Virus record (IMG/VR): IMGVR_UViG_2675903433_000018
Span: 1-22,730 of that record
Direction: 5' to 3' (one strand)
Source of the DNA: a virus
Lineage: Duplodnaviria > Heunggongvirae > Uroviricota > Caudoviricetes
Length of the DNA: 22,730 nucleotides
The translations under genes were made by a program, and so were the position numbers. The stretch's first letter is position 1. Every line of letters starts with the position of its first letter. Under the pieces are notes generated by a model that saw nothing but the letters and a program-made list of their open reading frames with translations, did no database searches and had not been told where the DNA came from. Positions 2,904 to 17,233 of the stretch are shown in pieces.

Positions 2904-3184
2904 TGGCTAACCTGCAACTTGCCGTTAAAGGTGAATACTTCGATGCCATGATTCGCGGGGAGAAAACGGAAGAGTATCGCCTGTGTAATGACTACTGGAA
3001 TAAGCGCCTCGTTAACTGTAAGTATGACCGCCTGATTATCACAAAGGGATATCCGAAGCGCGAAGACTTCAGTCGCAGAATTGACGTCCCGTATAACGGA
3101 TATGAAATAAAAACAATCACACATCCACACTTCGGTGATAAACCGGTAAAGGTGTTCGCGATAAAAGTGAAGATTAATAGCTAA
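2903..3184 (+). CDS. Hypothetical small protein
   Basis: GGAGGTGAGG RBS, ATG at 2903 overlapping the upstream stop (TAATG). Confidence 0.5.
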   Translation: MANLQLAVKGEYFDAMIRGEKTEEYRLCNDYWNKRLVNCKYDRLIITKGYPKREDFSRRIDVPYNGYEIKTITHPHFGDKPVKVFAIKVKINS

Positions 3185-3207
3185 ATTTCAATTAACACGG
3201 AGTAATT

Positions 3208-3501
3208 ATGTGGCGCGGTAATAATCATGGCGGAAGTCAGATGATACTTACCGAATATACGTTCGACCACAAAACCAATAAATCACGTTCAGTATATTTG
3301 CTTCGGCACAATAGCCGCGTAAGAAATACCGTTCTGGAGCAAAATCTGACCGTTGAAATGGATAATTTGGGAAACTTCAAGCCAACAATATCGCTTGATG
3401 ATTTTCCGTGTGGTTTAAGCGAAAGAGAAGCAATGCTGAAATTAGCAGAATGGCTACAAAGATTAAGCATTGCTATTGAAGATAACTGGCCTGAACCTTA
3501 A
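3208..3501 (+). CDS. Hypothetical small protein
   Basis: 97-aa ORF in the same plus-strand gene array; start could alternatively be the internal ATG at 3241. Confidence 0.45.
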   Translation: MWRGNNHGGSQMILTEYTFDHKTNKSRSVYLLRHNSRVRNTVLEQNLTVEMDNLGNFKPTISLDDFPCGLSEREAMLKLAEWLQRLSIAIEDNWPEP

Positions 3502-3507
3502 ATTAAT

Positions 3508-3882
3508 ATGATGACACTAAAACATTTTCTTGACCGCCCATTATGGGCGGCAGCCGCAGGCTATGACTTTAATTATATGGATTGCATGTCTTATACTGCC
3601 AATGCATACGACCATTCGTTCAGCCTGCTGTTTAATTCTTTAAGAATATTGCCGGAAACAGAAGTTGGAGAGCTTCATTTATGGATATTGGGCTTTATCG
3701 CGGCTGGAGTTGGTATTGCCGTATGGCCTTTTATTTTCTGGCTGGTGGCTGTTGTAGTGTGGTTTAAGTGCAAGACGTACCGGAAAAAGTATTTCTTAGG
3801 TGATGGAATGACTGATATTGCCAAAATGAACATTGAAAAATGGACTAAGGAATGTGAAAAGAAATGGCGCAAAAAGAAATGA
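3508..3882 (+). CDS. Small membrane protein (hydrophobic helices, Lys-rich C-terminus)
   Basis: 124-aa ORF; segment LWILGFIAAGVGIAVWPFIFWLVAVVVWF is transmembrane-like; weak RBS, so start is uncertain. Confidence 0.4.
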   Translation: MMTLKHFLDRPLWAAAAGYDFNYMDCMSYTANAYDHSFSLLFNSLRILPETEVGELHLWILGFIAAGVGIAVWPFIFWLVAVVVWFKCKTYRKKYFLGDGMTDIAKMNIEKWTKECEKKWRKKK

Positions 3883-4553
3883 CTACTCTAACGACAGCAT
3901 ACTTACAGCAATTGGTATTTTTTGCAGGCGAGGCTACTTGTCATCCTGACGCAAACTATTTATTGGAATTTGAGAGGTTAGCGTCACCCGGTATCGTTCT
4001 GGAACTGGCCCAACAGGTGCTGGCCTTGAGACAAAAAGAGCAACATGAAAGTAATACGTGTAGATTGAATTTTGAGCAGTGGCTGGAACAGCAACGCGGA
4101 AAAATCGATGTGGACTGTGGTTGTGTGTCCACTGAAACATTCATGCACTGGCTGCGGGTAGCTTACGAGGCTGGCAACTATCCGGATATTCCGGATATTC
4201 CGGATAGTTCGGTGCCAGCGCCAGGAAAGGGCGTCACAGGTGAACGTATCCGCATTAAGCCGCATGTTTATCGCGAACTGGTTAACCGTCTCCACGATAC
4301 AGCGATCAAGTGTGCAGGCACCCAGCAATTACGAGAAAGAATTAGCCGTGTTTTGGGCGACGTTATTACGCCAGACCATCATAAACAAGCCGAGAAAAGT
4401 GACCTAGAAAGGTGTCACCTTGAGGCGGCATTAAACATTAAGCCGGGGCATACGCTTGGCATTATCGATGCTCTGTTGGTTCATAAGATGGCCAGGGCTT
4501 TATTGCCGCTGGTGGCTGAAAAGCATGAGGCGGACCATGCCAACGAAAGCTGA
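3879..4553 (+). CDS. Hypothetical protein containing a PDIPDIPD repeat
   Basis: ORF 3864-4553; the ATG at 3879 overlaps the upstream stop (ATGA), suggesting coupled translation; contains a 9-bp tandem repeat at 4183-4208. Confidence 0.45.
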   Translation: MTTLTTAYLQQLVFFAGEATCHPDANYLLEFERLASPGIVLELAQQVLALRQKEQHESNTCRLNFEQWLEQQRGKIDVDCGCVSTETFMHWLRVAYEAGNYPDIPDIPDSSVPAPGKGVTGERIRIKPHVYRELVNRLHDTAIKCAGTQQLRERISRVLGDVITPDHHKQAEKSDLERCHLEAALNIKPGHTLGIIDALLVHKMARALLPLVAEKHEADHANES

Positions 4554-9408: not shown

Positions 9409-10602
9409 GTGACCTGGGACGATCACAAGAAGAATTTTGCTCGCCTGGCGCGAGATGGTGGTTACACCATCGCACAGTATGCCGCCGAGTTTAATCTTAA
9501 CCCTAATACCGCACGTCGTTATCTCCGTGCCTTCAAAGAAGACTCCAGGACTGCGGACAGCCGCAAGCCAAATAAGCCAGTCAGGAAGCCACTAAAAAGC
9601 ATGATCATTGATCACTCTAATGATCAACATGCAGGTGATCATATTGCGGCTGAAATAGCGGAAAAACAGAGAGTTAATGCCGTTATCAGTGCCGCAGTCG
9701 AGAATGCGAAGCGCCAAAATAAGCGCATAAATGATCGTTCAGATGATCATGACGTGATCACCCGCGCCCACCGGACCTTACGTGATCGCCTGGAACGCGA
9801 CACCCTGGATGATGATGGTGAACGCTTTGAATTCGAAGCTGGCGATTACCTGATAGATAACGTTGAAGCGCGGAAGGCCGCGCGCGCTATGTTGCGTCGG
9901 TCCGGGGCCGATGTTCTGGAAACCACTCTTCTTGAAAAGTCTCTTTCTCATCTCCTTATGCTGGAGAACGCCAGGGATACGTGTATTCGCCTGGTGCAGG
10001 AAATGCGCGATCAGCAAAAAGACGATGATGAAGGTACTCCGCCTGAATACCGTATCGCGAGCATGCTAAACAGCTGTTCCGCGCAGATAAGCAGTCTGAT
10101 CAACACCATTTACAGCATCCGGAATAACTATCGAAAAGAAAGCCGGGAGGCGGAAAAGCACGCTTTATCTATGGGGCAAGCTGGCATTGTTAAGCTGGCA
10201 TACGAACGAAAGCGTGAAAATAACTGGTCAGTGCTGGAAGCAGCTGAATTCATCGAGGCGCATGGTGGGAAAGTTCCGCCCCTGATGCTGGAGCAAATCA
10301 AAGCCGATCTGCGTGCTCCTAAGACCAATACCGATGATGAGGAAAGGCAAACAGCCGTCGGTGGCCCTTCTCTTGAAGATCTGGACAAAGTTGCGCGAGA
10401 ACGGGCCGCCAGCCGCCGCGCTGATGCCGCATTGTGGATTGAGCATCGTAGAGAAGAAATTGCCGATATCGTCGATACAGGTGGTTATGGTGATGTCGAT
10501 GCGGAAGGCATATCAAACGAAGCATGGCTTGAACAGGATCTGGACGAAAACGAGGAGGAAGACGAAGAAGTTACCCGCAAACTGTACGGGGATGATGATT
10601 AA
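9409..10602 (+). CDS. pacA: PacA, pac-cleavage terminase subunit
   Basis: 397-aa ORF starting GTG 9409 (MTWDDHKK…); contains the pac hexamer array internally; acidic C-terminus. Confidence 0.85.
9602..9760 (+). other. pac: pac packaging-initiation site: clusters of Dam-methylatable hexamers (4 x TGATCA, then TGATCG + 2 x TGATCA)
   Basis: TGATCA at 9602, 9609, 9621, 9636; TGATCG at 9732; TGATCA at 9744, 9755; this 4 + 3 layout inside pacA matches the P1 pac site. Confidence 0.8.
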
Positions 10603-12086
10603 TGGCCAGAAGTTGCGTAACGGACCCACGTTGGCGCGAGCTGGTGGCGCTATATCGTTATGACTGGATTGCGGCCGCTGATGTGTTGTTTGGGAAGACA
10701 CCAACCTGGCAGCAGGATGAGATCATTGAGTCCACGCAGCAGGACGGCAGTTGGACAAGTGTGACCTCCGGCCATGGTACTGGTAAGTCGGATATGACGA
10801 GTATCATTGCAATACTCTTCATCATGTTTTTCCCCGGCGCTCGCGTTATTCTGGTCGCTAACAAAAGACAGCAAGTCCTTGATGGTATTTTCAAATACAT
10901 AAAGAGCAATTGGGCTACTGCTGTTAGCAGATTCCCGTGGTTGTCGAAGTATTTCATTCTTACAGAAACGTCTTTTTTTGAGGTGACTGGCAAGGGTGTT
11001 TGGACAATATTGATAAAGTCCTGTCGCCCCGGAAATGAGGAGGCGTTGGCTGGTGAACACGCCGATCATCTCTTGTATATCATCGACGAAGCGTCGGGTG
11101 TGAGTGATAAAGCATTCAGTGTGATAACAGGTGCGCTGACCGGTAAGGATAACCGTATTCTGCTTCTTTCCCAGCCTACGCGACCTTCAGGCTATTTCTA
11201 CGATTCACACCACAGACTAGCTATTCGCCCGGGAAATCCTGATGGATTGTTTACTGCGATAATACTGAATAGTGAAGAATCTCCGCTTGTAGATGCAAAA
11301 TTTATACGAGCAAAACTTGCGGAGTATGGCGGTCGTGATAACCCCATGTACATGATCAAAGTACGTGGTGAATTTCCCAAATCTCAAGATGGCTTTCTTC
11401 TTGGTCGTGATGAGGTTGAGCGGGCGACGCGGCGAAAGGTCAAGATTGCCAAAGGATGGGGCTGGGTTGCATGTGTTGACGTTGCTGGTGGCACAGGACG
11501 AGATAAGTCCGTTATTAATATCATGATGGTGTCCGGCCAGCGAAATAAACGCCGTGTAATCAACTATCGTATGCTGGAATACACAGACGTTACAGAAACG
11601 CAGTTAGCCGCCAAGATTTTCGCAGAATGTAACCCAGAACGGTTCCCGAACATAACCATAGCTATTGATGGCGATGGCTTGGGGAAATCGACGGCTGATC
11701 TGATGTACGAACGCTATGGTATTACCGTCCAGCGTATCCGCTGGGGTAAAAAGATGCACAGCCGTGAAGATAAAAGCCTTTATTTCGATATGCGCGCTTT
11801 CGCGAATATTCAGGCGGCAGAAGCTGTAAAATCAGGGCGTATGCGGCTTGATAAGGGGGCTGCGACTATAGAGGAAGCATCAAAGATACCGGTAGGGATA
11901 AATTCCGCAGGTCAATGGAAGGTGATGTCAAAGGAAGATATGAAGAAAAAACTCAACCTGCACTCACCGGACCATTGGGATACATATTGTTTCGCTATGT
12001 TGGCGAACTATGTTCCCCAAGATGAAGTGCTTAGCGTCGAAGACGAAGCGCAGGTTGATGAAGCTCTGGCATGGCTTAATGAATGA
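10602..12086 (+). CDS. pacB: PacB, large terminase subunit
   Basis: 494-aa ORF, ATG overlapping the pacA stop (TAATG); size and position match P1 PacB. Confidence 0.85.
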
Positions 12087-12089
12087 ATA

Positions 12090-12106
12090 TTTGCTCTAAT
12101 AAATTG
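12090..12106 (+). promoter_or_regulatory. C1-operator-like 17-mer immediately after pacB, overlapping a candidate promoter
   Basis: TTTGCTCTAATAAATTG (15/17 to remembered consensus); followed by TTGTGT-17-TACATT (12104-12132). Confidence 0.45.
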
Positions 12107-12138
12107 TGTTTTTTAACTACCGATGTTACATTGAGCCT

Positions 12139-12259
12139 GACCTCTTGCGCCTTGAGGCATTTTCGGTTTATGCTTATCAGGCACCTCATTAAAACGGGTG
12201 CCGGGATTGGCCTCCCGCTTAAGTCTAAGGCGATACAGACGCCGCTCGCGTCTTTTTTT
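12139..12259 (+). ncRNA. Putative small structured RNA (c4-like antisense repressor candidate) ending at an intrinsic terminator
   Basis: Candidate promoter upstream; nested hairpins (GCCTGA…TCAGGC enclosing CCTC…GAGG); ends at GACGC-cgctc-GCGTC + T7 (12238-12259); contains ATTGGCCTCC, complementary to the downstream RBS region, and a copy of GTCTAAGG. Confidence 0.3.
12238..12259 (+). terminator. Rho-independent terminator
   Basis: GACGC-cgctc-GCGTC followed by TTTTTTT. Confidence 0.6.
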
Positions 12260-12424
12260 GTATCGGCGTACACGCACACCTCTACAATGGTGGGCTGTAT
12301 GGGGCTACCTTCGGGTAGGCTGGTTACCTTGGACGCCAGTAAGGCCAACTCCGTACAGTCCACCGCCAGCAAGATTGGTCTCTTCTGCGGTGGTTACATA
12401 CCAACGTCTAAGGAGGCTGCCAAT

Positions 12425-12646
12425 ATGGCTACTATCCCTACCCCAACTCATCCTGAATTTATCTGGCGCTTTTACTCCTGCCAAAAACGTCACTATCACT
12501 TCGTTATTGCACCAACAGAAGATGAGGCTCGCTCTCAGCTTCCTGACGCCCCATGTATTTTCTCTGCCCGTTTTTCCACTGATTCACGCAATTCTCTCAG
12601 TTACTGGTGCCTCCCTGTTAACGCTTCTGCTCAGGAGGGACTATGA
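12425..12646 (+). CDS. Small 73-aa protein translationally coupled to the antirepressor gene (icd-like by position and size)
   Basis: AAGGAGG RBS 8 nt upstream of ATG 12425; stop overlaps the ant start (ATGA); the longer ORF-track entries 12083-12646 and 12198-12668 run across the terminator and are unlikely to be real. Confidence 0.55.
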   Translation: MATIPTPTHPEFIWRFYSCQKRHYHFVIAPTEDEARSQLPDAPCIFSARFSTDSRNSLSYWCLPVNASAQEGL

Positions 12647-13761
12647 GAACGTCATTAGTCACCCGTGAAGAGATGATCGAGGCAATTGAACAGCACACAA
12701 TCTGTATCAGCACCAGGGATATACCTGGCGTTATTGCCAACTACTTCATGATCACCAAACAACTTTACCGGAGAAAGGACAAGAACGCGGTTCACCGTAT
12801 CCTGTTGTCTGATATCCGCGAATACCTGCTCGAACAGGGTCATCTGAATTACGCAACCGTCGCAGCCGAAGCACGCAAGGAGGCACACAGAATGAAAGCA
12901 AATAACGTTAAATTAGAAAAAATTCATGCACCTTCAGTTCAGGAATCGGAGCTGGTGGTTGTTCAGAATCAGTCTGATGAAATTCCCGTTCTGGAATGGC
13001 AGGGAGTGCGTGTAGTGACAACCGAGACTCTTGCGAGAGGGTATGGGACAGAAACAATCCGTATTCGCCAAAATCATCATGAGAACAAAGTACGCTTTGT
13101 TGAAGGGAAGCACTTTTTCAAAGTTGAAGGAGAATCATTGCGCGAGTTGAAGCACAGAGTAGCTTTAAACTACTCTGTAAAAATTGCTCGCAATGTTCGC
13201 TCACTCACCCTCTGGACAGAACGCGGCGCAGCCCGCCACGCTAAAATGCTCGAAACCGATCAGGCATGGGCATTCTTTGAAAAACTGGAAGACAGCTACT
13301 TCCGGCAAAAAGAACAGCAACCGGTTGCAATCCCCCAGACGCTTCCAGAAGCTCTGCGCCTGGCTGCCGAACTGGCTGAACAAAAGCAACTTCTGGAACA
13401 GAAAGCCCACCAGCTAAATCAGCAGCTGGTGGCCGCCGCTCCTAAGGTCGATTTTGCCGACCGGGTATCAGTGGCCAAGGGGATCCTGATTGGGAATTTT
13501 GCAAAGGTTGTTGGACTTAAGCAAAACGCGCTGTTTGTCTGGTTACGGGAGAACGGCATCCTGATAGCGTCCGGTGGACGTAAAAATGTGCCGTTCCAGC
13601 AGTACATCAACGCGGGGTATTTCACGGTGAAAGAAGTGGTGCTGGATGATGAAGATGGCTACCAGATACGGTTGACGCCTCAATTAACGGGTAAAGGCCA
13701 GCAGTGGTTGACGCGTAAACTGCTCGATGCTGGCTTGTTAAAACCGGTGGCGGCTGAATAA
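12643..13761 (+). CDS. ant: Phage antirepressor (ORF6N/BRO-N-like central domain plus KilAC/Ant C-terminal domain), Ant1-like
   Basis: 372-aa ORF; central region (VLEWQGVRVVTTETLARGYG…KHFFKVEGESL…) resembles the AntA/ORF6N domain and the C-terminus (…NVPFQQYINAGYFTVKEV…TPQLTGKGQQWL…) resembles KilAC/Ant; AGGAGG RBS. Confidence 0.7.
   Translation: MRTSLVTREEMIEAIEQHTICISTRDIPGVIANYFMITKQLYRRKDKNAVHRILLSDIREYLLEQGHLNYATVAAEARKEAHRMKANNVKLEKIHAPSVQESELVVVQNQSDEIPVLEWQGVRVVTTETLARGYGTETIRIRQNHHENKVRFVEGKHFFKVEGESLRELKHRVALNYSVKIARNVRSLTLWTERGAARHAKMLETDQAWAFFEKLEDSYFRQKEQQPVAIPQTLPEALRLAAELAEQKQLLEQKAHQLNQQLVAAAPKVDFADRVSVAKGILIGNFAKVVGLKQNALFVWLRENGILIASGGRKNVPFQQYINAGYFTVKEVVLDDEDGYQIRLTPQLTGKGQQWLTRKLLDAGLLKPVAAE
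12892..13761 (+). CDS. In-frame internal start giving a shorter antirepressor isoform (Ant2-like)
   Basis: AAGGAGG RBS 8 nt upstream of in-frame ATG 12892 (MKANNVKL…), giving a 289-aa product; P1 ant is described as producing two in-frame products. Confidence 0.4.
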   Translation: MKANNVKLEKIHAPSVQESELVVVQNQSDEIPVLEWQGVRVVTTETLARGYGTETIRIRQNHHENKVRFVEGKHFFKVEGESLRELKHRVALNYSVKIARNVRSLTLWTERGAARHAKMLETDQAWAFFEKLEDSYFRQKEQQPVAIPQTLPEALRLAAELAEQKQLLEQKAHQLNQQLVAAAPKVDFADRVSVAKGILIGNFAKVVGLKQNALFVWLRENGILIASGGRKNVPFQQYINAGYFTVKEVVLDDEDGYQIRLTPQLTGKGQQWLTRKLLDAGLLKPVAAE

Positions 13762-13793: not shown

Positions 13794-14645
13794 TTATTGC
13801 GCGCTTTCGGGGTTGTCGTTTACTGGCTGCCCCTTCTTGGTTTTACGGCTGCGCGCAACTGATGCGGCTGACTTAACCTTTTTCTCTTCGCGAGTGATGG
13901 CAATTTGTTTTTTTACATTTTCAATATCTGCCAGGCGATATATTTTTGCCTGCGGCCAGCGGTCGCAGATGATCGGTTCTATAGAGTCATAAAGGCTAAA
14001 TTTTGCTTTCTCGAATTCACCGTTGATGATGATTCCATCACGGAGAGTTTCATCGCAGATAAACACACCACACAGCGGCACATGGTAACTAACTGATTTA
14101 CCATCATTGTAGTTAGGGCTACTGGAAATGTAATGGACGCGCAGCATTGTTTCGCTAAAGCCGTGTACACGCATACGGAATTTTTCATCCTCCGGGTACT
14201 GCTTCATTAGCTCTTTTGTTGCTTCCAGGTTCTCTATGTATTTCGCACTGTGCTCATTGATCCCCGCGCTTTTCTGGATGCGAATGTCCTTATCAATCAG
14301 ATGAATAATGCGGCCAGCGGTCATGTTGACGCTGTTCACAGCTTCTGTCTGATAAGTTGTAACCTTACGCACACCGCGAAGGATGTTAGGCACTGGATAT
14401 AAAATAGTCTTTGGGATATTGAGGTCTGGGTACTGTTCCAGTTCCCGCGCCATTAAAGTCCATTTATCAATTTCAGCCTGAATGCTGTCCGTTTCTTTGA
14501 ACGGCAGAACGACAACCGGGCGTACAGGACGACCGTCGCTGGCGGCATCAACGTGTTGGGCGCGTGCAACAGCTTTTTTTAGAAAGAGATCCCTGAAGCT
14601 GACGAACTCCTGGTACAGTTGTTCGCCGTAGACATAATTTATCAT
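13794..14645 (-). CDS. c1: C1 repressor of lysogeny
   Basis: 283-aa product (MINYVYGEQLYQEFVSFRDLFLKK…) matches P1 C1 from memory; GGAGGAGG RBS. Confidence 0.9.
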   Translation of the reverse strand: MINYVYGEQLYQEFVSFRDLFLKKAVARAQHVDAASDGRPVRPVVVLPFKETDSIQAEIDKWTLMARELEQYPDLNIPKTILYPVPNILRGVRKVTTYQTEAVNSVNMTAGRIIHLIDKDIRIQKSAGINEHSAKYIENLEATKELMKQYPEDEKFRMRVHGFSETMLRVHYISSSPNYNDGKSVSYHVPLCGVFICDETLRDGIIINGEFEKAKFSLYDSIEPIICDRWPQAKIYRLADIENVKKQIAITREEKKVKSAASVARSRKTKKGQPVNDNPESAQ

Positions 14646-14667
14646 TGATCCTCCTCCAGAATTGACA

Positions 14668-14710
14668 TGGCCAACAACTCACAGCGGATTACACTGGGAG
14701 TTGTTGGCCA
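14668..14710 (-). other. Perfect 13-bp inverted repeat (stem-loop) in the coi-c1 intercistronic region
   Basis: TGGCCAACAACTC-(17 nt)-GAGTTGTTGGCCA. Confidence 0.5.
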
Positions 14711-14738
14711 CCATTATAGAAGGATCCAACGAAAATAA

Positions 14739-14755
14739 TAGATTTATTAGTGCAT
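14739..14755 (-). promoter_or_regulatory. Weak C1-operator-like site upstream of c1
   Basis: Minus-strand reading approximates ATTGCTCTAATAAATTT at about 14/17. Confidence 0.3.
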
Positions 14756-14965
14756 TTATTGTGAGTCTGGCTGGTTAGTGGCCATGAGATATTCGATTGT
14801 GTCAGTGAGATCATCCAGGTCGTCTTGGGTGATGCGGTACTCCTGATTGGATATCTTTGAGTAGTGTTCAGCAATGGCGCGGGCAGCGTCGGTTTCGGCA
14901 GGGTCTACAGATAAAGCGTTAGAGCAATGTCTAACGTCGTCGATGGTTGGTTGAATGAAAGCCAT
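14756..14965 (-). CDS. coi: Coi, C1 inactivator
   Basis: 69-aa product MAFIQPTIDDVRHCSNALSVDPAETDAARAIAEHYSKISNQEYRITQDDLDDLTDTIEYLMATNQPDSQ matches P1 Coi; directly upstream of c1 on the same strand. Confidence 0.85.
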   Translation of the reverse strand: MAFIQPTIDDVRHCSNALSVDPAETDAARAIAEHYSKISNQEYRITQDDLDDLTDTIEYLMATNQPDSQ

Positions 14966-15202
14966 AATTATGCCTCACTGTATTGACAACACAGAGCCTG
15001 AAGCTCTGACCTACTGTTTCACCCATGATCCATGCTGGGGTAATCTAACAACATTGCGCTGTGTGTAAGATGAGCAATGCATAGCTGTAATGCCGTTGTA
15101 TAAGGTTTCCCTGTTTGCTCATTTCCTTCTGAGCCGCTCTACAACGCTGAAGACACATTAAATAGTGAATCCAAAGTCGTATTACGAAACGGCGGCAAAC
15201 TA

Positions 15203-15219
15203 TAATTTATTAGAGCAAT
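15203..15219 (-). promoter_or_regulatory. C1 operator (minus orientation)
   Basis: Reverse complement reads ATTGCTCTAATAAATTA (16/17 to consensus). Confidence 0.55.
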
Positions 15220-15284
15220 TGTCAAACAACTATGAAAAACAATCCAGTTTTTGGCTGGTGGAGTGGGATTTTTCTCTCAAAATT

Positions 15285-15301
15285 TATTGCTCTAATAATT
15301 C
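15285..15301 (+). promoter_or_regulatory. C1-operator-like site (plus orientation)
   Basis: ATTGCTCTAATAATTCT, about 14/17 to consensus; about 45 bp upstream of loxP. Confidence 0.45.
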
Positions 15302-15345
15302 TTGATTTTTATGCGCAGCTGGACGTAAACTCCTCTTCGGACCTA

Positions 15346-15379
15346 ATAACTTCGTATAGCATACATTATACGAAGTTAT
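15346..15379 (+). other. loxP: loxP site-specific recombination site
   Basis: Exact ATAACTTCGTATA-GCATACAT-TATACGAAGTTAT (13-bp inverted arms, 8-bp asymmetric spacer). Confidence 0.97.
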
Positions 15380-15451
15380 CTTAAGGGTTATTGAACATGA
15401 TTAATTTACCTGTAAATCCATACAGTTCAATACCTTATCAGGTCAAATAGT

Positions 15452-15545
15452 GATCACTTGATCATTTGATCAAGGTTGCGCTACGTAAAATCTGCGAAAT
15501 GTTGGCAGTGTTAGTGCTCCAGATTTCGCGTAGCGCACTTAGCAC
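15452..15545 (+). promoter_or_regulatory. GATC (Dam) triplet cluster plus long imperfect inverted repeat in the region upstream of cra/cre
   Basis: GATC at 15452, 15460, 15468 (TGATCACTTGATCATTTGATCA); GCGCTACG…CGAAAT / ATTTCGCGTAGCGC inverted repeat at about 15478-15540. Confidence 0.4.
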
Positions 15546-15568
15546 CACCAATCAATCAGAGGTGAAAA

Positions 15569-15790
15569 ATGGGATATTCAGCTGCTAAAGTGTCCACTCA
15601 TCTTGAGCTTGAGAAAAACCGTGGTTACTGGCGGGCAAAATGGTTTGAGCGTGATAGTTACCAACTGTCATTATCTCGCGGTGAAGAGAAAATAGAACGC
15701 ACGCGCGGTCGCTGGCGTTTCTATGACGAGAACCATAACCAGGTAAAGGCAGAGCCAATCCTGTACACTCTGCTGAAAACAATAATTTAA
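15569..15790 (+). CDS. Hypothetical small basic protein between loxP and cra
   Basis: 73-aa ORF with GAGGTG RBS; Arg/Trp-rich. Confidence 0.45.
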   Translation: MGYSAAKVSTHLELEKNRGYWRAKWFERDSYQLSLSRGEEKIERTRGRWRFYDENHNQVKAEPILYTLLKTII

Positions 15791-15809
15791 CTTGATCATG
15801 AGGTGATGA

Positions 15810-16205
15810 ATGTTTAATGGCCTGACAGATGCCAAGGTAAACGCCTTACTGAACGACGCAAAACAAAAAGCTGCTAACCCTGGAACGAATGAAAATGAAC
15901 GTGCTATGGCTGTTGCAATTTGGGAGTTAGCAGAAGAAGTAAAGCGAAACCGCTTACTATACACTCGGGTTTACCAGCAATTTGATGGTGCGAGCTGGAT
16001 AGATATCGAAGAGGCTGAATATGCAACATGCAAAAAAGAAAAAAAGATTGTTCGGATTTTGCATAAAGCAGCAACCCCAATCACTGTAGAAATCCCCGAT
16101 CACAGATATTTCGAGAACGATGATCTACCAGGGGATGTGATTCGAATTATTGATGAGATACTTCATGAACAAGGCTTAACTGTTAAAATCACGCATAATA
16201 AATGA
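15810..16205 (+). CDS. cra: Cre-associated protein (cra-like), translationally coupled to cre
   Basis: 131-aa ORF, GAGGTGA RBS; stop overlaps the cre ATG (ATGA). Confidence 0.55.
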   Translation: MFNGLTDAKVNALLNDAKQKAANPGTNENERAMAVAIWELAEEVKRNRLLYTRVYQQFDGASWIDIEEAEYATCKKEKKIVRILHKAATPITVEIPDHRYFENDDLPGDVIRIIDEILHEQGLTVKITHNK

Positions 16206-17233
16206 CTAATTCGTTAACCGTTCACCAAAATTTGCCTGCATTGCCGGTCGATGCAACGAGTGATGAGGTTCGCAAGAACCTGATGGACATGTTCAGGGAT
16301 CGCCAGGCGTTTTCTGATCATACCTGGAAAATGCTTCTGTCCGTTTGCCGGTCGTGGGCGGCATGGTGCAAGTTGAATAACCGGAAATGGTTTCCCGCAG
16401 AACCTGAAGATGTTCGCGATTACCTTCTATATCTTCAGGCGCGTGGTCTGGCAGTAAAAACTATCCAGCAACATTTGGGCCAGCTAAACATGCTTCATCG
16501 TCGGTCCGGGCTGCCACGACCAAGTGACAGCAATGCTGTTTCACTGGTCATGCGACGGATCCGAAAAGAAAACGTTGATGCCGGTGAGCGTGCAAAACAG
16601 GCGCTGGCGTTCGAACGCACTGATTTCGACCAGGTTCGTTCACTCATGGAAAATAGCGATCGCTGCCAGGATATACGTAATCTGGCATTTCTGGGGATTG
16701 CTTATAACACCCTGTTACGTATAGCCGAAATTTCTAGGATCAGGGTTAAAGATATCTCACGTACTGACGGTGGGAGAATGTTAATCCATATTGGCAGAAC
16801 GAAAACGCTGGTTAGCACCGCTGGTGTAGAGAAGGCACTTAGCCTGGGGGTAACTAAACTGGTTGAGCGATGGATTTCTGTCTCTGGTGTAGCTGATGAT
16901 CCGAATAACTACCTGTTTTGCCGCGTCAGAAAAAATGGTGTTGCCGCGCCATCATCCACCAGCCAGCTATCAACTCGCGCCCTGGAAGGGATTTTTGAAG
17001 CAACTCACCGATTGATTTACGGGGCAAAAGATGACTCTGGTCAGCGATACCTGGCCTGGTCTGGACATAGTGCCCGTGTCGGTGCCGCGCGAGATATGGC
17101 CCGCGCCGGAGTTTCAATACCGGAGATCATGCAAGCTGGTGGCTGGACCAACGTAAATATTGTCATGAACTACATTCGTAACCTGGATAGTGAAACGGGG
17201 GCAATGGTGCGCCTGCTGGAAGATGGCGATTAG
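16202..17233 (+). CDS. cre: Cre tyrosine recombinase
   Basis: 343-aa product nearly identical to canonical Cre (MTNSLTVHQNLPALPVDATSDEVRKNLMDMFRDRQAF…LLEDGD); a few substitutions relative to my remembered reference (S2T, L4S, E to D in …AFS[E/D]HTWK…, A to S in …IAEI[A/S]RIR…, A to S in …APS[A/S]TSQL…). Confidence 0.97.
   Translation: MTNSLTVHQNLPALPVDATSDEVRKNLMDMFRDRQAFSDHTWKMLLSVCRSWAAWCKLNNRKWFPAEPEDVRDYLLYLQARGLAVKTIQQHLGQLNMLHRRSGLPRPSDSNAVSLVMRRIRKENVDAGERAKQALAFERTDFDQVRSLMENSDRCQDIRNLAFLGIAYNTLLRIAEISRIRVKDISRTDGGRMLIHIGRTKTLVSTAGVEKALSLGVTKLVERWISVSGVADDPNNYLFCRVRKNGVAAPSSTSQLSTRALEGIFEATHRLIYGAKDDSGQRYLAWSGHSARVGAARDMARAGVSIPEIMQAGGWTNVNIVMNYIRNLDSETGAMVRLLEDGD

Follow-up and report, generated by a model that had tools for sequence, protein, structure and literature searches.

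A minority of P1-like phage-plasmids carry an orphan gene between cra and cre

In the reference genome of phage P1 (NC_005856), in which coordinate 1 is the lox centre, the recombination locus is organized as lox-cra-cre, with cra (207-428, specifying a 73-residue protein) separated by a gap of 7 nt from cre, whose start lies at 436; the older P1 record X03453 exhibits the same layout and carries the promoter designations pR1 to pR3. For P1, the activity of the cre promoter P3cre/pR1 is reported by Sternberg et al. (1986; cited in PMC10695390) to vary with the dam genotype of the host. Table 2 of PMC10695390 lists both cra and cre as dispensable for plaque formation. A survey of 77 P1-like elements recognized eight variable regions, and the lox-cre interval is not among them (PMC9603915). 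Cre/loxP is among the most used genetic tools; cra, an unannotated inverted repeat upstream of it, and the natural variation of the lox-cre interval are poorly understood.

The window analyzed here, i.e., the whole stretch of 22,730 nucleotides represented by IMG/VR virus record IMGVR_UViG_2675903433_000018, very probably originates from a P1-like phage-plasmid of E. coli, in which a P1 control region is combined with a mosaic patch of ~470 bp that includes an open reading frame of 131 codons (ORF131). Between the lox centre and the cre ATG (16202) there are 840 bp, compared to 436 bp in P1, and the approximate doubling pointed out in the original prediction (~820 versus ~430 bp) is thus borne out. 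The longer spacing had, however, been tied to the interval 15380-15810, and this link did not stand. An alignment to the P1 loxP-cre region, which the original prediction proposed as a check, reveals gap-free colinearity at the base level from lox through the end of cra (P1 coordinates shift by +15362 to give window positions), holding up to 15786; the extra DNA is located downstream of cra, from ~15787 to ~16216, i.e., nearly all of it outside 15380-15810. The features of the region are as follows.

15286-15302, plus strand: C1 operator Oc1e, ATTGCTCTAATAATTCT, mapped from P1 annotation 94724-94769 via the alignment offset
15302-15307 and 15326-15331, plus strand: promoter P4cre (-35 TTGATT and -10 TAAACT, respectively), mapped from P1 annotation
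15346-15379, no strand: loxP, exact 13-8-13 site
15399-15402, no strand: position of P1 Dam site 1 (P1 37-40), which reads GATT
15403-15430, minus strand: P2coi promoter with LexA box CTGT-N8-ACAG (box 15410-15425), P1 annotation 41-68
15452, 15460 and 15468 (span 15452-15471), no strand: three GATC sites, those at 15460 and 15468 being P1 Dam sites 2 and 3
15466-15491, plus strand: promoter P3cre (pR1), -35 TTGATC at 15466-15471 and -10 TAAAAT at 15486-15491, P1 annotation 104-129, identical here
15477-15537, no strand: inverted repeat with arms 15477-15494 and 15520-15537 and a 25-nt loop, the left arm holding the P3cre -10
15569-15790, plus strand: cra, a P1 gene of 73 codons, SD GAGGTG at 15559-15564
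15645-15674, plus strand: equivalent of promoter P2cre (pR2), -35 TTGAGC (15645-15650) versus TTGATC in P1
15762-15786, plus strand: equivalent of promoter P1cre (pR3), -10 AATAAT versus CATTAT in P1, upstream of ORF131
15770-16243, no strand: mosaic patch relative to P1-type genomes, with synonymous changes in the last cra codons, ~404 extra bp and a diverged cre start
15810-16205, plus strand: ORF131, an orphan protein-coding gene of 131 codons, SD GAGGTG at 15800-15805, stop TGA (16203-16205) overlapping the cre ATG
16202-17233, plus strand: cre, 343 codons, product 99% identical to P1 Cre, without an SD of its own here

Relative to P1-type sequences, mismatches are sparse up to 15739 and then clustered at 15770-15784, where all of them are synonymous and fall within the last seven cra codons; alignment is lost from ~15787 to ~16216 and picks up again past two further mismatches at 16222 and 16243. 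These breakpoints indicate that the extra ~404 bp consist of ORF131 and its junctions. The first ~14 cre codons are also diverged in the patch (MTNSLTV versus MSNLLTV). A single cause, replacement of the cra/cre junction by the ~470-bp mosaic patch that brought in ORF131, accounts for the doubled loxP-to-cre distance. When a 1.2-kb query was used, two-piece matches with ~65% coverage were obtained for all 24 matching phage records, from each of which the extra DNA is absent, and for ~690 of 705 plasmid records. The author of the original prediction apparently took the 131-codon ORF directly upstream of cre for cra, and the present comparison sets right this easy confusion over which of the two ORFs is additional. 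The features within 15380-15810 are already-known P1 biology; what truly sets the window apart is an orphan gene with predicted coupling to cre, found in a minority of P1-like elements.

The 73-codon ORF at 15569-15790, whose existence had been noted correctly, is cra: its product is 93% identical to P1 Cra at the amino acid level, it occupies an identical offset from the lox centre, and the homology search that had been suggested for it returned a full-length match to phrog_804, i.e., P1 Cra (E = 1e-32, residues 3-73). P1-like elements from Escherichia, Salmonella and Klebsiella and SSU5-type phage-plasmids that infect the same three genera encode Cra homologues, as does Cronobacter phage JK004; the SSU5 homologue is not located beside any cre, and adjacency to cre therefore does not define the Cra family. 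No Pfam domain was found in Cra, nor a relative in a PDB sequence search, and AlphaFold modelled it with low confidence (pLDDT 54), as a beta-rich protein ending in a helix at the C-terminus. Of note, NCBI annotation widely names Cra ‘creatininase’ (e.g., in CP124376, our locus L005, at 3370-3591, and in P0010); a corresponding domain is absent and this is evidently a misnaming.

Upstream of cra, loxP matches exactly (34 bp, with 13-bp inverted arms and the 8-bp spacer GCATACAT), and transcripts from P4cre, a promoter under C1 control, would go rightward through it. The LexA box is invariant in eight aligned P1-type and Salmonella-type sequences and unchanged in the IMG/VR locus L116, while JK004 shows one change. 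The three GATC sites within 20 bp reported in the original prediction are present at 15452, 15460 and 15468, and the accompanying suggestion that they are regulatory agrees with P1 annotation, where two of the three are Dam methylation sites 2 and 3 of the cre regulatory region; these two, at 15460 and 15468, overlap two alternative -35 hexamers annotated for P3cre/pR1. The site at 15452 reads GACC in reference P1 and GATC in MH422554 and many other P1-like sequences. Such a triplet is encountered somewhere in window-sized DNA in ~15% of random placements, and is therefore not unusual on its own.

Two GATCs of reference P1 have been lost here, namely Dam site 1, adjoining the P2coi -10, because of a C-to-T change at 15402 that sets the window apart from all four comparators, and that in the pR2 -35, because the hexamer reads TTGAGC instead of TTGATC. 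Given these losses (15399-15402 and 15645-15650) and the GATC at 15452, Dam input to the region may differ from that in P1. A consensus promoter scan of 15200-16400 returned no sigma-70-like site; the same scan also misses the experimentally mapped, weak P1 promoters. Elsewhere in the window, eight GATCs in a pacA-like ORF (9409-10602) form two tight groups (9603-9640 and 9733-9787) that are denser than the 15452-15471 cluster, and these groups, spanning 9603-9787, presumably represent the Dam-methylated P1 pac site. A separate observation concerns the IMG/VR loci L031, L047 and L058, from which the 34-bp loxP is cleanly absent near locus position 3080 in an otherwise normal P1-type lox-cra-cre arrangement; this looks like automatic vector trimming during assembly or submission, and not biology.

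The imperfect inverted repeat of ~60 bp described in the original prediction is confirmed (18-nt arms, 89% complementary, ~61 bp overall) and also occurs in P1, where it is unannotated. As RNA it has a predicted folding energy of -28.4 kcal/mol (z = -3.4). In all four lineages compared (P1 type, Salmonella type, JK004 and L116), the arms persist around loops of unrelated sequence; spacing is constant in the P1 and Salmonella types except for 1 nt in L010, and the loop is extended by ~6 nt in JK004 and by 1 nt in L116. The lox-cra interval was compared in 35 distinct P1-type versions, in which variable positions account for 11 of 25 in the loop versus 3 of 36 in the arms (p = 0.0017), the latter being not more conserved than the remaining interval (19 of 128; p = 0.41). 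A formal pair count gives 90% of cells paired versus 17-45% in slid controls, and arm variants tend toward repairing the two mismatches, while L116 changes one side only of a pair and so breaks it; the covariation score of 0.067, obtained from only seven distinct arm versions, was reached in 147 of 500 shuffles. An intrinsic (Rho-independent) terminator is ruled out by the lack of a T-run after 15537, and the terminator scan does not report the repeat. Rfam returned chance matches only for 14600-16400. The proposition that no transcript spans both arms was dropped, since P4cre lies left of loxP in the P1 annotation: pR1 transcripts begin within the loop, while those from P4cre would include both arms.

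This conserved repeat over the pR1 -10 could be an unrecognized operator or RNA element. That a dimeric DNA-binding protein uses the repeat as an operator to control P3cre/pR1, with the left arm covering the -10, is a distinct if tentative possibility; it is consistent with the persistence of the arms across four diverged lineages with unrelated loops, with the loop being the variable part within the P1 type and with the start of P3cre transcripts inside the loop, which prevents the hairpin from forming in them, although no binding protein is known and arm conservation does not exceed that of the rest of the lox-cra interval. It is rather unlikely that the repeat instead acts as an RNA hairpin in P4cre transcripts, affecting stability or processing of the cra-cre message. 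Its stable fold, the presence of P4cre upstream, the high pairing relative to slid controls and the tendency of arm variants to mend the two mismatches fit such a role, yet covariation is not above that of shuffled controls, the one-sided change in L116 breaks a pair, the missing T-run excludes intrinsic termination and no Rfam family matches.

ORF131 is a real gene under purifying selection. Its six alleles from E. coli and Salmonella each comprise exactly 131 codons without indels, and comparison with the Salmonella-type alleles yields dN/dS values of 0.11-0.18 at dS 0.39-0.49. In the C-terminal 45 codons, pS amounts to 0.41-0.45 and pN to 0.038 (pN/pS ~0.09); synonymous change is thus free in this third of the gene while pN is low, indicating constraint on the protein. 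The SD is strong (predicted duplex energy -6.9 kcal/mol), and the product, a slightly acidic protein (pI 5.6), aligns end to end with phrog_20152 (E = 3.8e-92, residues 1-131 versus profile 1-131). Codons 61-86 (15990-16067) are fast-evolving, holding most of the amino acid differences, with eight nonsynonymous versus one synonymous change among E. coli alleles; relaxed or diversifying selection could be acting there, the numbers being small. A mini-ORF, ATG-AGG-TGA (15797-15805), overlaps the ORF131 SD in an AACTT..ATGA context that resembles the JK004 cra-cre junction (AACTTATGACC), and may derive from the ancestral cre start, left over at the point of insertion.

In sequence databases, ORF131 is an orphan. 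No significant match was obtained in Pfam or NCBIfam, PADLOC defence models produced only a non-significant JetC fragment (E = 0.01, 11.7 bits), and a PDB sequence search returned no relative. The AlphaFold model is weak (pLDDT 53) with a helical N-terminal half, and the best Foldseek E-value of this model against PDB and BFVD, 0.66, was taken as meaningless. A search of 5.8 billion proteins yielded six clusters at 90% identity, all from E. coli or Salmonella and on contigs of ~90-100 kb, while an exhaustive profile search of 1.84 billion representatives recovered, besides the cluster of ORF131 itself, only a frameshifted fragment and a spurious leucine-rich-repeat protein. A gene between cra and cre is not described in the literature searched.

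All occurrences of ORF131 trace to P1-like elements from E. coli and Salmonella. The gene is present in 32 of 5,426 complete E. coli genomes, i.e., in 4.6% (32 of 699) of those with lox-cra, in 14 of 705 plasmid records, in ten IMG/VR loci and in seven of the 70 IMG/VR loci with both lox and cre. Neither the DNA segment (distant mode) nor the protein (tblastn) matched anything in a collection of 50,697 phage records, and a scan of species-representative genomes returned no ORF131, with Cre in two loci only. Many carriers are O111 strains, and plasmid pO111_2 (NC_013370) annotates the gene product as a hypothetical protein (WP_000481733.1). In E. coli 06-00048, the segment occurs both in the 136-kb plasmid CP012497 and in chromosome record CP015229 (1878341-1878751), the sole chromosome record among all ORF131 matches, reflecting either an integrated element or differing assemblies. 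The 22.7-kb window as a whole is matched by no single plasmid record, the best reaching 89% coverage at 99.3% identity. Between pacB (10602-12086) and c1 (13794-14645, minus strand), the window also contains a 1.7-kb block (12083-13761) that codes for one protein of the Ash family (PF10554) and one antirepressor of the ORF6N/KilAC type (PF10543, PF03374); c1 directly follows pacB in MH422554 and CP124376, which marks this block as a second mosaic insertion in the window.

The lox-cre interval is modular across P1-like elements, with four gene layouts and a fifth that holds a further small ORF. To the lox-cra-cre order of P1 and the lox-cra-ORF131-cre order of the window are added lox-ORF356-cra-ORF131-cre in the so-called Salmonella type (Logan contigs L006-L008 and L010) and lox-ORF356-cra-cre in Cronobacter phage JK004 (MZ188976, L101) and IMG/VR locus L105, where cra and cre are 7 nt apart; L116 resembles JK004 with an additional 68-codon ORF. 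IMG/VR scans with diverged Cre queries found L105 and L116 as the only new loci. ORF356, located at 1699-2981 in the four Salmonella-type contigs and at 3038-4320 in JK004, belongs to phrog_7674 and has no Pfam match. In L116, a diverged P1-like contig, the 68-codon ORF (2481-2687, phrog_19934) lies between the inverted repeat and ORF356, and the lox variant at 2260-2293 (ATAACTTCGTATA-ACACACAT-TATGCGAAGTTAT) has another spacer and one arm change, so that Cre and lox of this locus may form a heterospecific pair.

Between the window and the Salmonella type, pS is 0.81 for cre and ~0.3 for ORF131, the lower value for the latter suggesting that it moved between backbones relatively recently. The 3' end of cra and the first cre codons of the window are of the Salmonella/JK004 type, and such patch ends are as expected for a homologous-recombination patch; recombination between homologous sequences at the conserved cra and cre ends would thus have carried the patch from lineage to lineage. 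Of the four diverged lineages, three are without ORF131 and have cra and cre close together (7-8 nt apart in JK004 and L116, as in P1). This favours gain of ORF131 over repeated precise loss, an argument from parsimony over four diverged lineages only, and one that is not strong.

In every allele, the ORF131 stop and the cre ATG overlap as ATGA. Pairing of the cre start region with the anti-SD is predicted at +1.5 kcal/mol here versus -2.5 kcal/mol in P1. The catalytic residues R173, K201, H289, R292, W315 and Y324 of Cre, a tyrosine recombinase, are invariant in the alignment. All known cre promoters (P4cre, pR1, pR2 and pR3) are upstream of ORF131; pR3, whose P1 version stops 12 nt short of the cre ATG, has its equivalent before the ORF131 SD. 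From their position, ORF131 would be transcribed from the cre promoters. The missing cre SD together with the ATGA overlap suggests that Cre is made by termination-reinitiation following ORF131 translation, which would then set Cre output. The ORF131 protein itself would be a dispensable, ‘moron’-type accessory factor, made together with Cre soon after DNA entry and in the lysogenic state; its absence from ~95% of relatives and the dispensability of cra and cre argue for an accessory factor rather than a recombination component.

Several other readings of the extra DNA have to be weighed against acquisition of a small accessory gene. That the Arg/Trp-rich 73-codon ORF is itself the insertion between loxP and cra/cre, as the original prediction considered, is virtually impossible: the ORF is real and the total distance exceeds that of P1, yet reference P1 carries the same ORF at the same lox offset (207-428) in a gap-free alignment, and an identical ORF in P1 was part of what the original prediction had named as refuting it. 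It is likewise very unlikely that ORF131 is a chance ORF in a non-coding spacer, which would agree with the lack of a wider family, a confident fold and a known function but not with its dN/dS of 0.11-0.18, constant length, strong SD, conserved ATGA overlap and full-length phrog_20152 match.

If ORF131 were ancestral to the cra-cre operon and deleted in P1, the window would represent the older state; the Salmonella-type operon is indeed longer (ORF356-cra-ORF131-cre), with P1 the most reduced, and the start of ORF131, RBS and six leading codons, bears a loose likeness to that of P1 cre (M-x-N-x-L-T), the kind of trace that a deletion between short repeats could produce. This is nevertheless quite improbable, as JK004/L105 and L116 lack ORF131 with P1-like spacing of 7-8 nt, so that three precise losses would be needed, and as ORF131 shows no co-divergence with its backbone in the pS comparison with cre. 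Hardly more probable is a direct action of ORF131 on Cre/lox, as a recombination directionality or dosage factor and not as an unrelated accessory gene. Its strict position beside cre, its predicted coupling and its occurrence in both backbone types speak for such a role; set against it are the ~95% of P1-like elements that manage without ORF131, the acidic nature of a protein with no recognizable DNA-binding motif and the lack of co-variation evidence. A broader proposal, namely that ORF131 regulates or partners Cre through coupling and perhaps by binding Cre or lox, or else is an early anti-defence factor, with the repeat being an unrecognized element, is speculative and on balance doubtful. 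Were ORF131 a Cre regulator, it would alter the timing or direction of P1 plasmid recombination, while as an anti-defence factor it would ride the first operon transcribed after DNA entry.

For gain of an accessory gene, which remains the preferred reading, the stakes are modest: ORF131 is dispensable in most relatives and already catalogued as a ‘hypothetical protein’. In ~5% of E. coli P1-like plasmids, Cre would be expressed behind, and probably through, an orphan gene, and the ORF131-cre arrangement is a testable handle on natural Cre dosage control.

Compared to the loxP-cra-cre region of P1, the window shares the exact loxP, the LexA box with P2coi, Dam sites 2 and 3, the inverted repeat, cra at an identical offset, a 99% identical Cre, and P4cre and Oc1e left of lox. 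It differs by an additional ~404 bp, ORF131 included, between cra and cre, by the other allelic type of the last ~7 cra and first ~14 cre codons, by a cre without SD, by the loss of Dam site 1 and of the pR2 -35 GATC and by the gain of a GATC at 15452. The closest plasmid counterparts, pO111_2 of E. coli O111:H- 11128 and similar elements (AP018798, CP027575), exhibit the same cra-ORF131-cre arrangement at 99.7-100% identity without any regional difference. The Salmonella type and JK004 share with the window loxP, the LexA box, the GATC pair, the repeat arms, the ACCAATCAATCA block and a Cra homologue before cre, while they differ from it by the 356-codon ORF between repeat and cra, which overlaps cra as ATGA; given this arrangement in non-P1 lineages, P1 cra may be a remnant of a longer operon. 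The Salmonella type possesses ORF131 (89% amino acid identity to that of the window), while JK004 does not. In contrast to phage morons, ORF131 shows no promoter or terminator of its own and is embedded by predicted coupling, not as an autonomous cassette; like them, it is a small, lineage-restricted gene with its own RBS between two conserved genes, found in a minority of otherwise near-identical genomes and moved by recombination.
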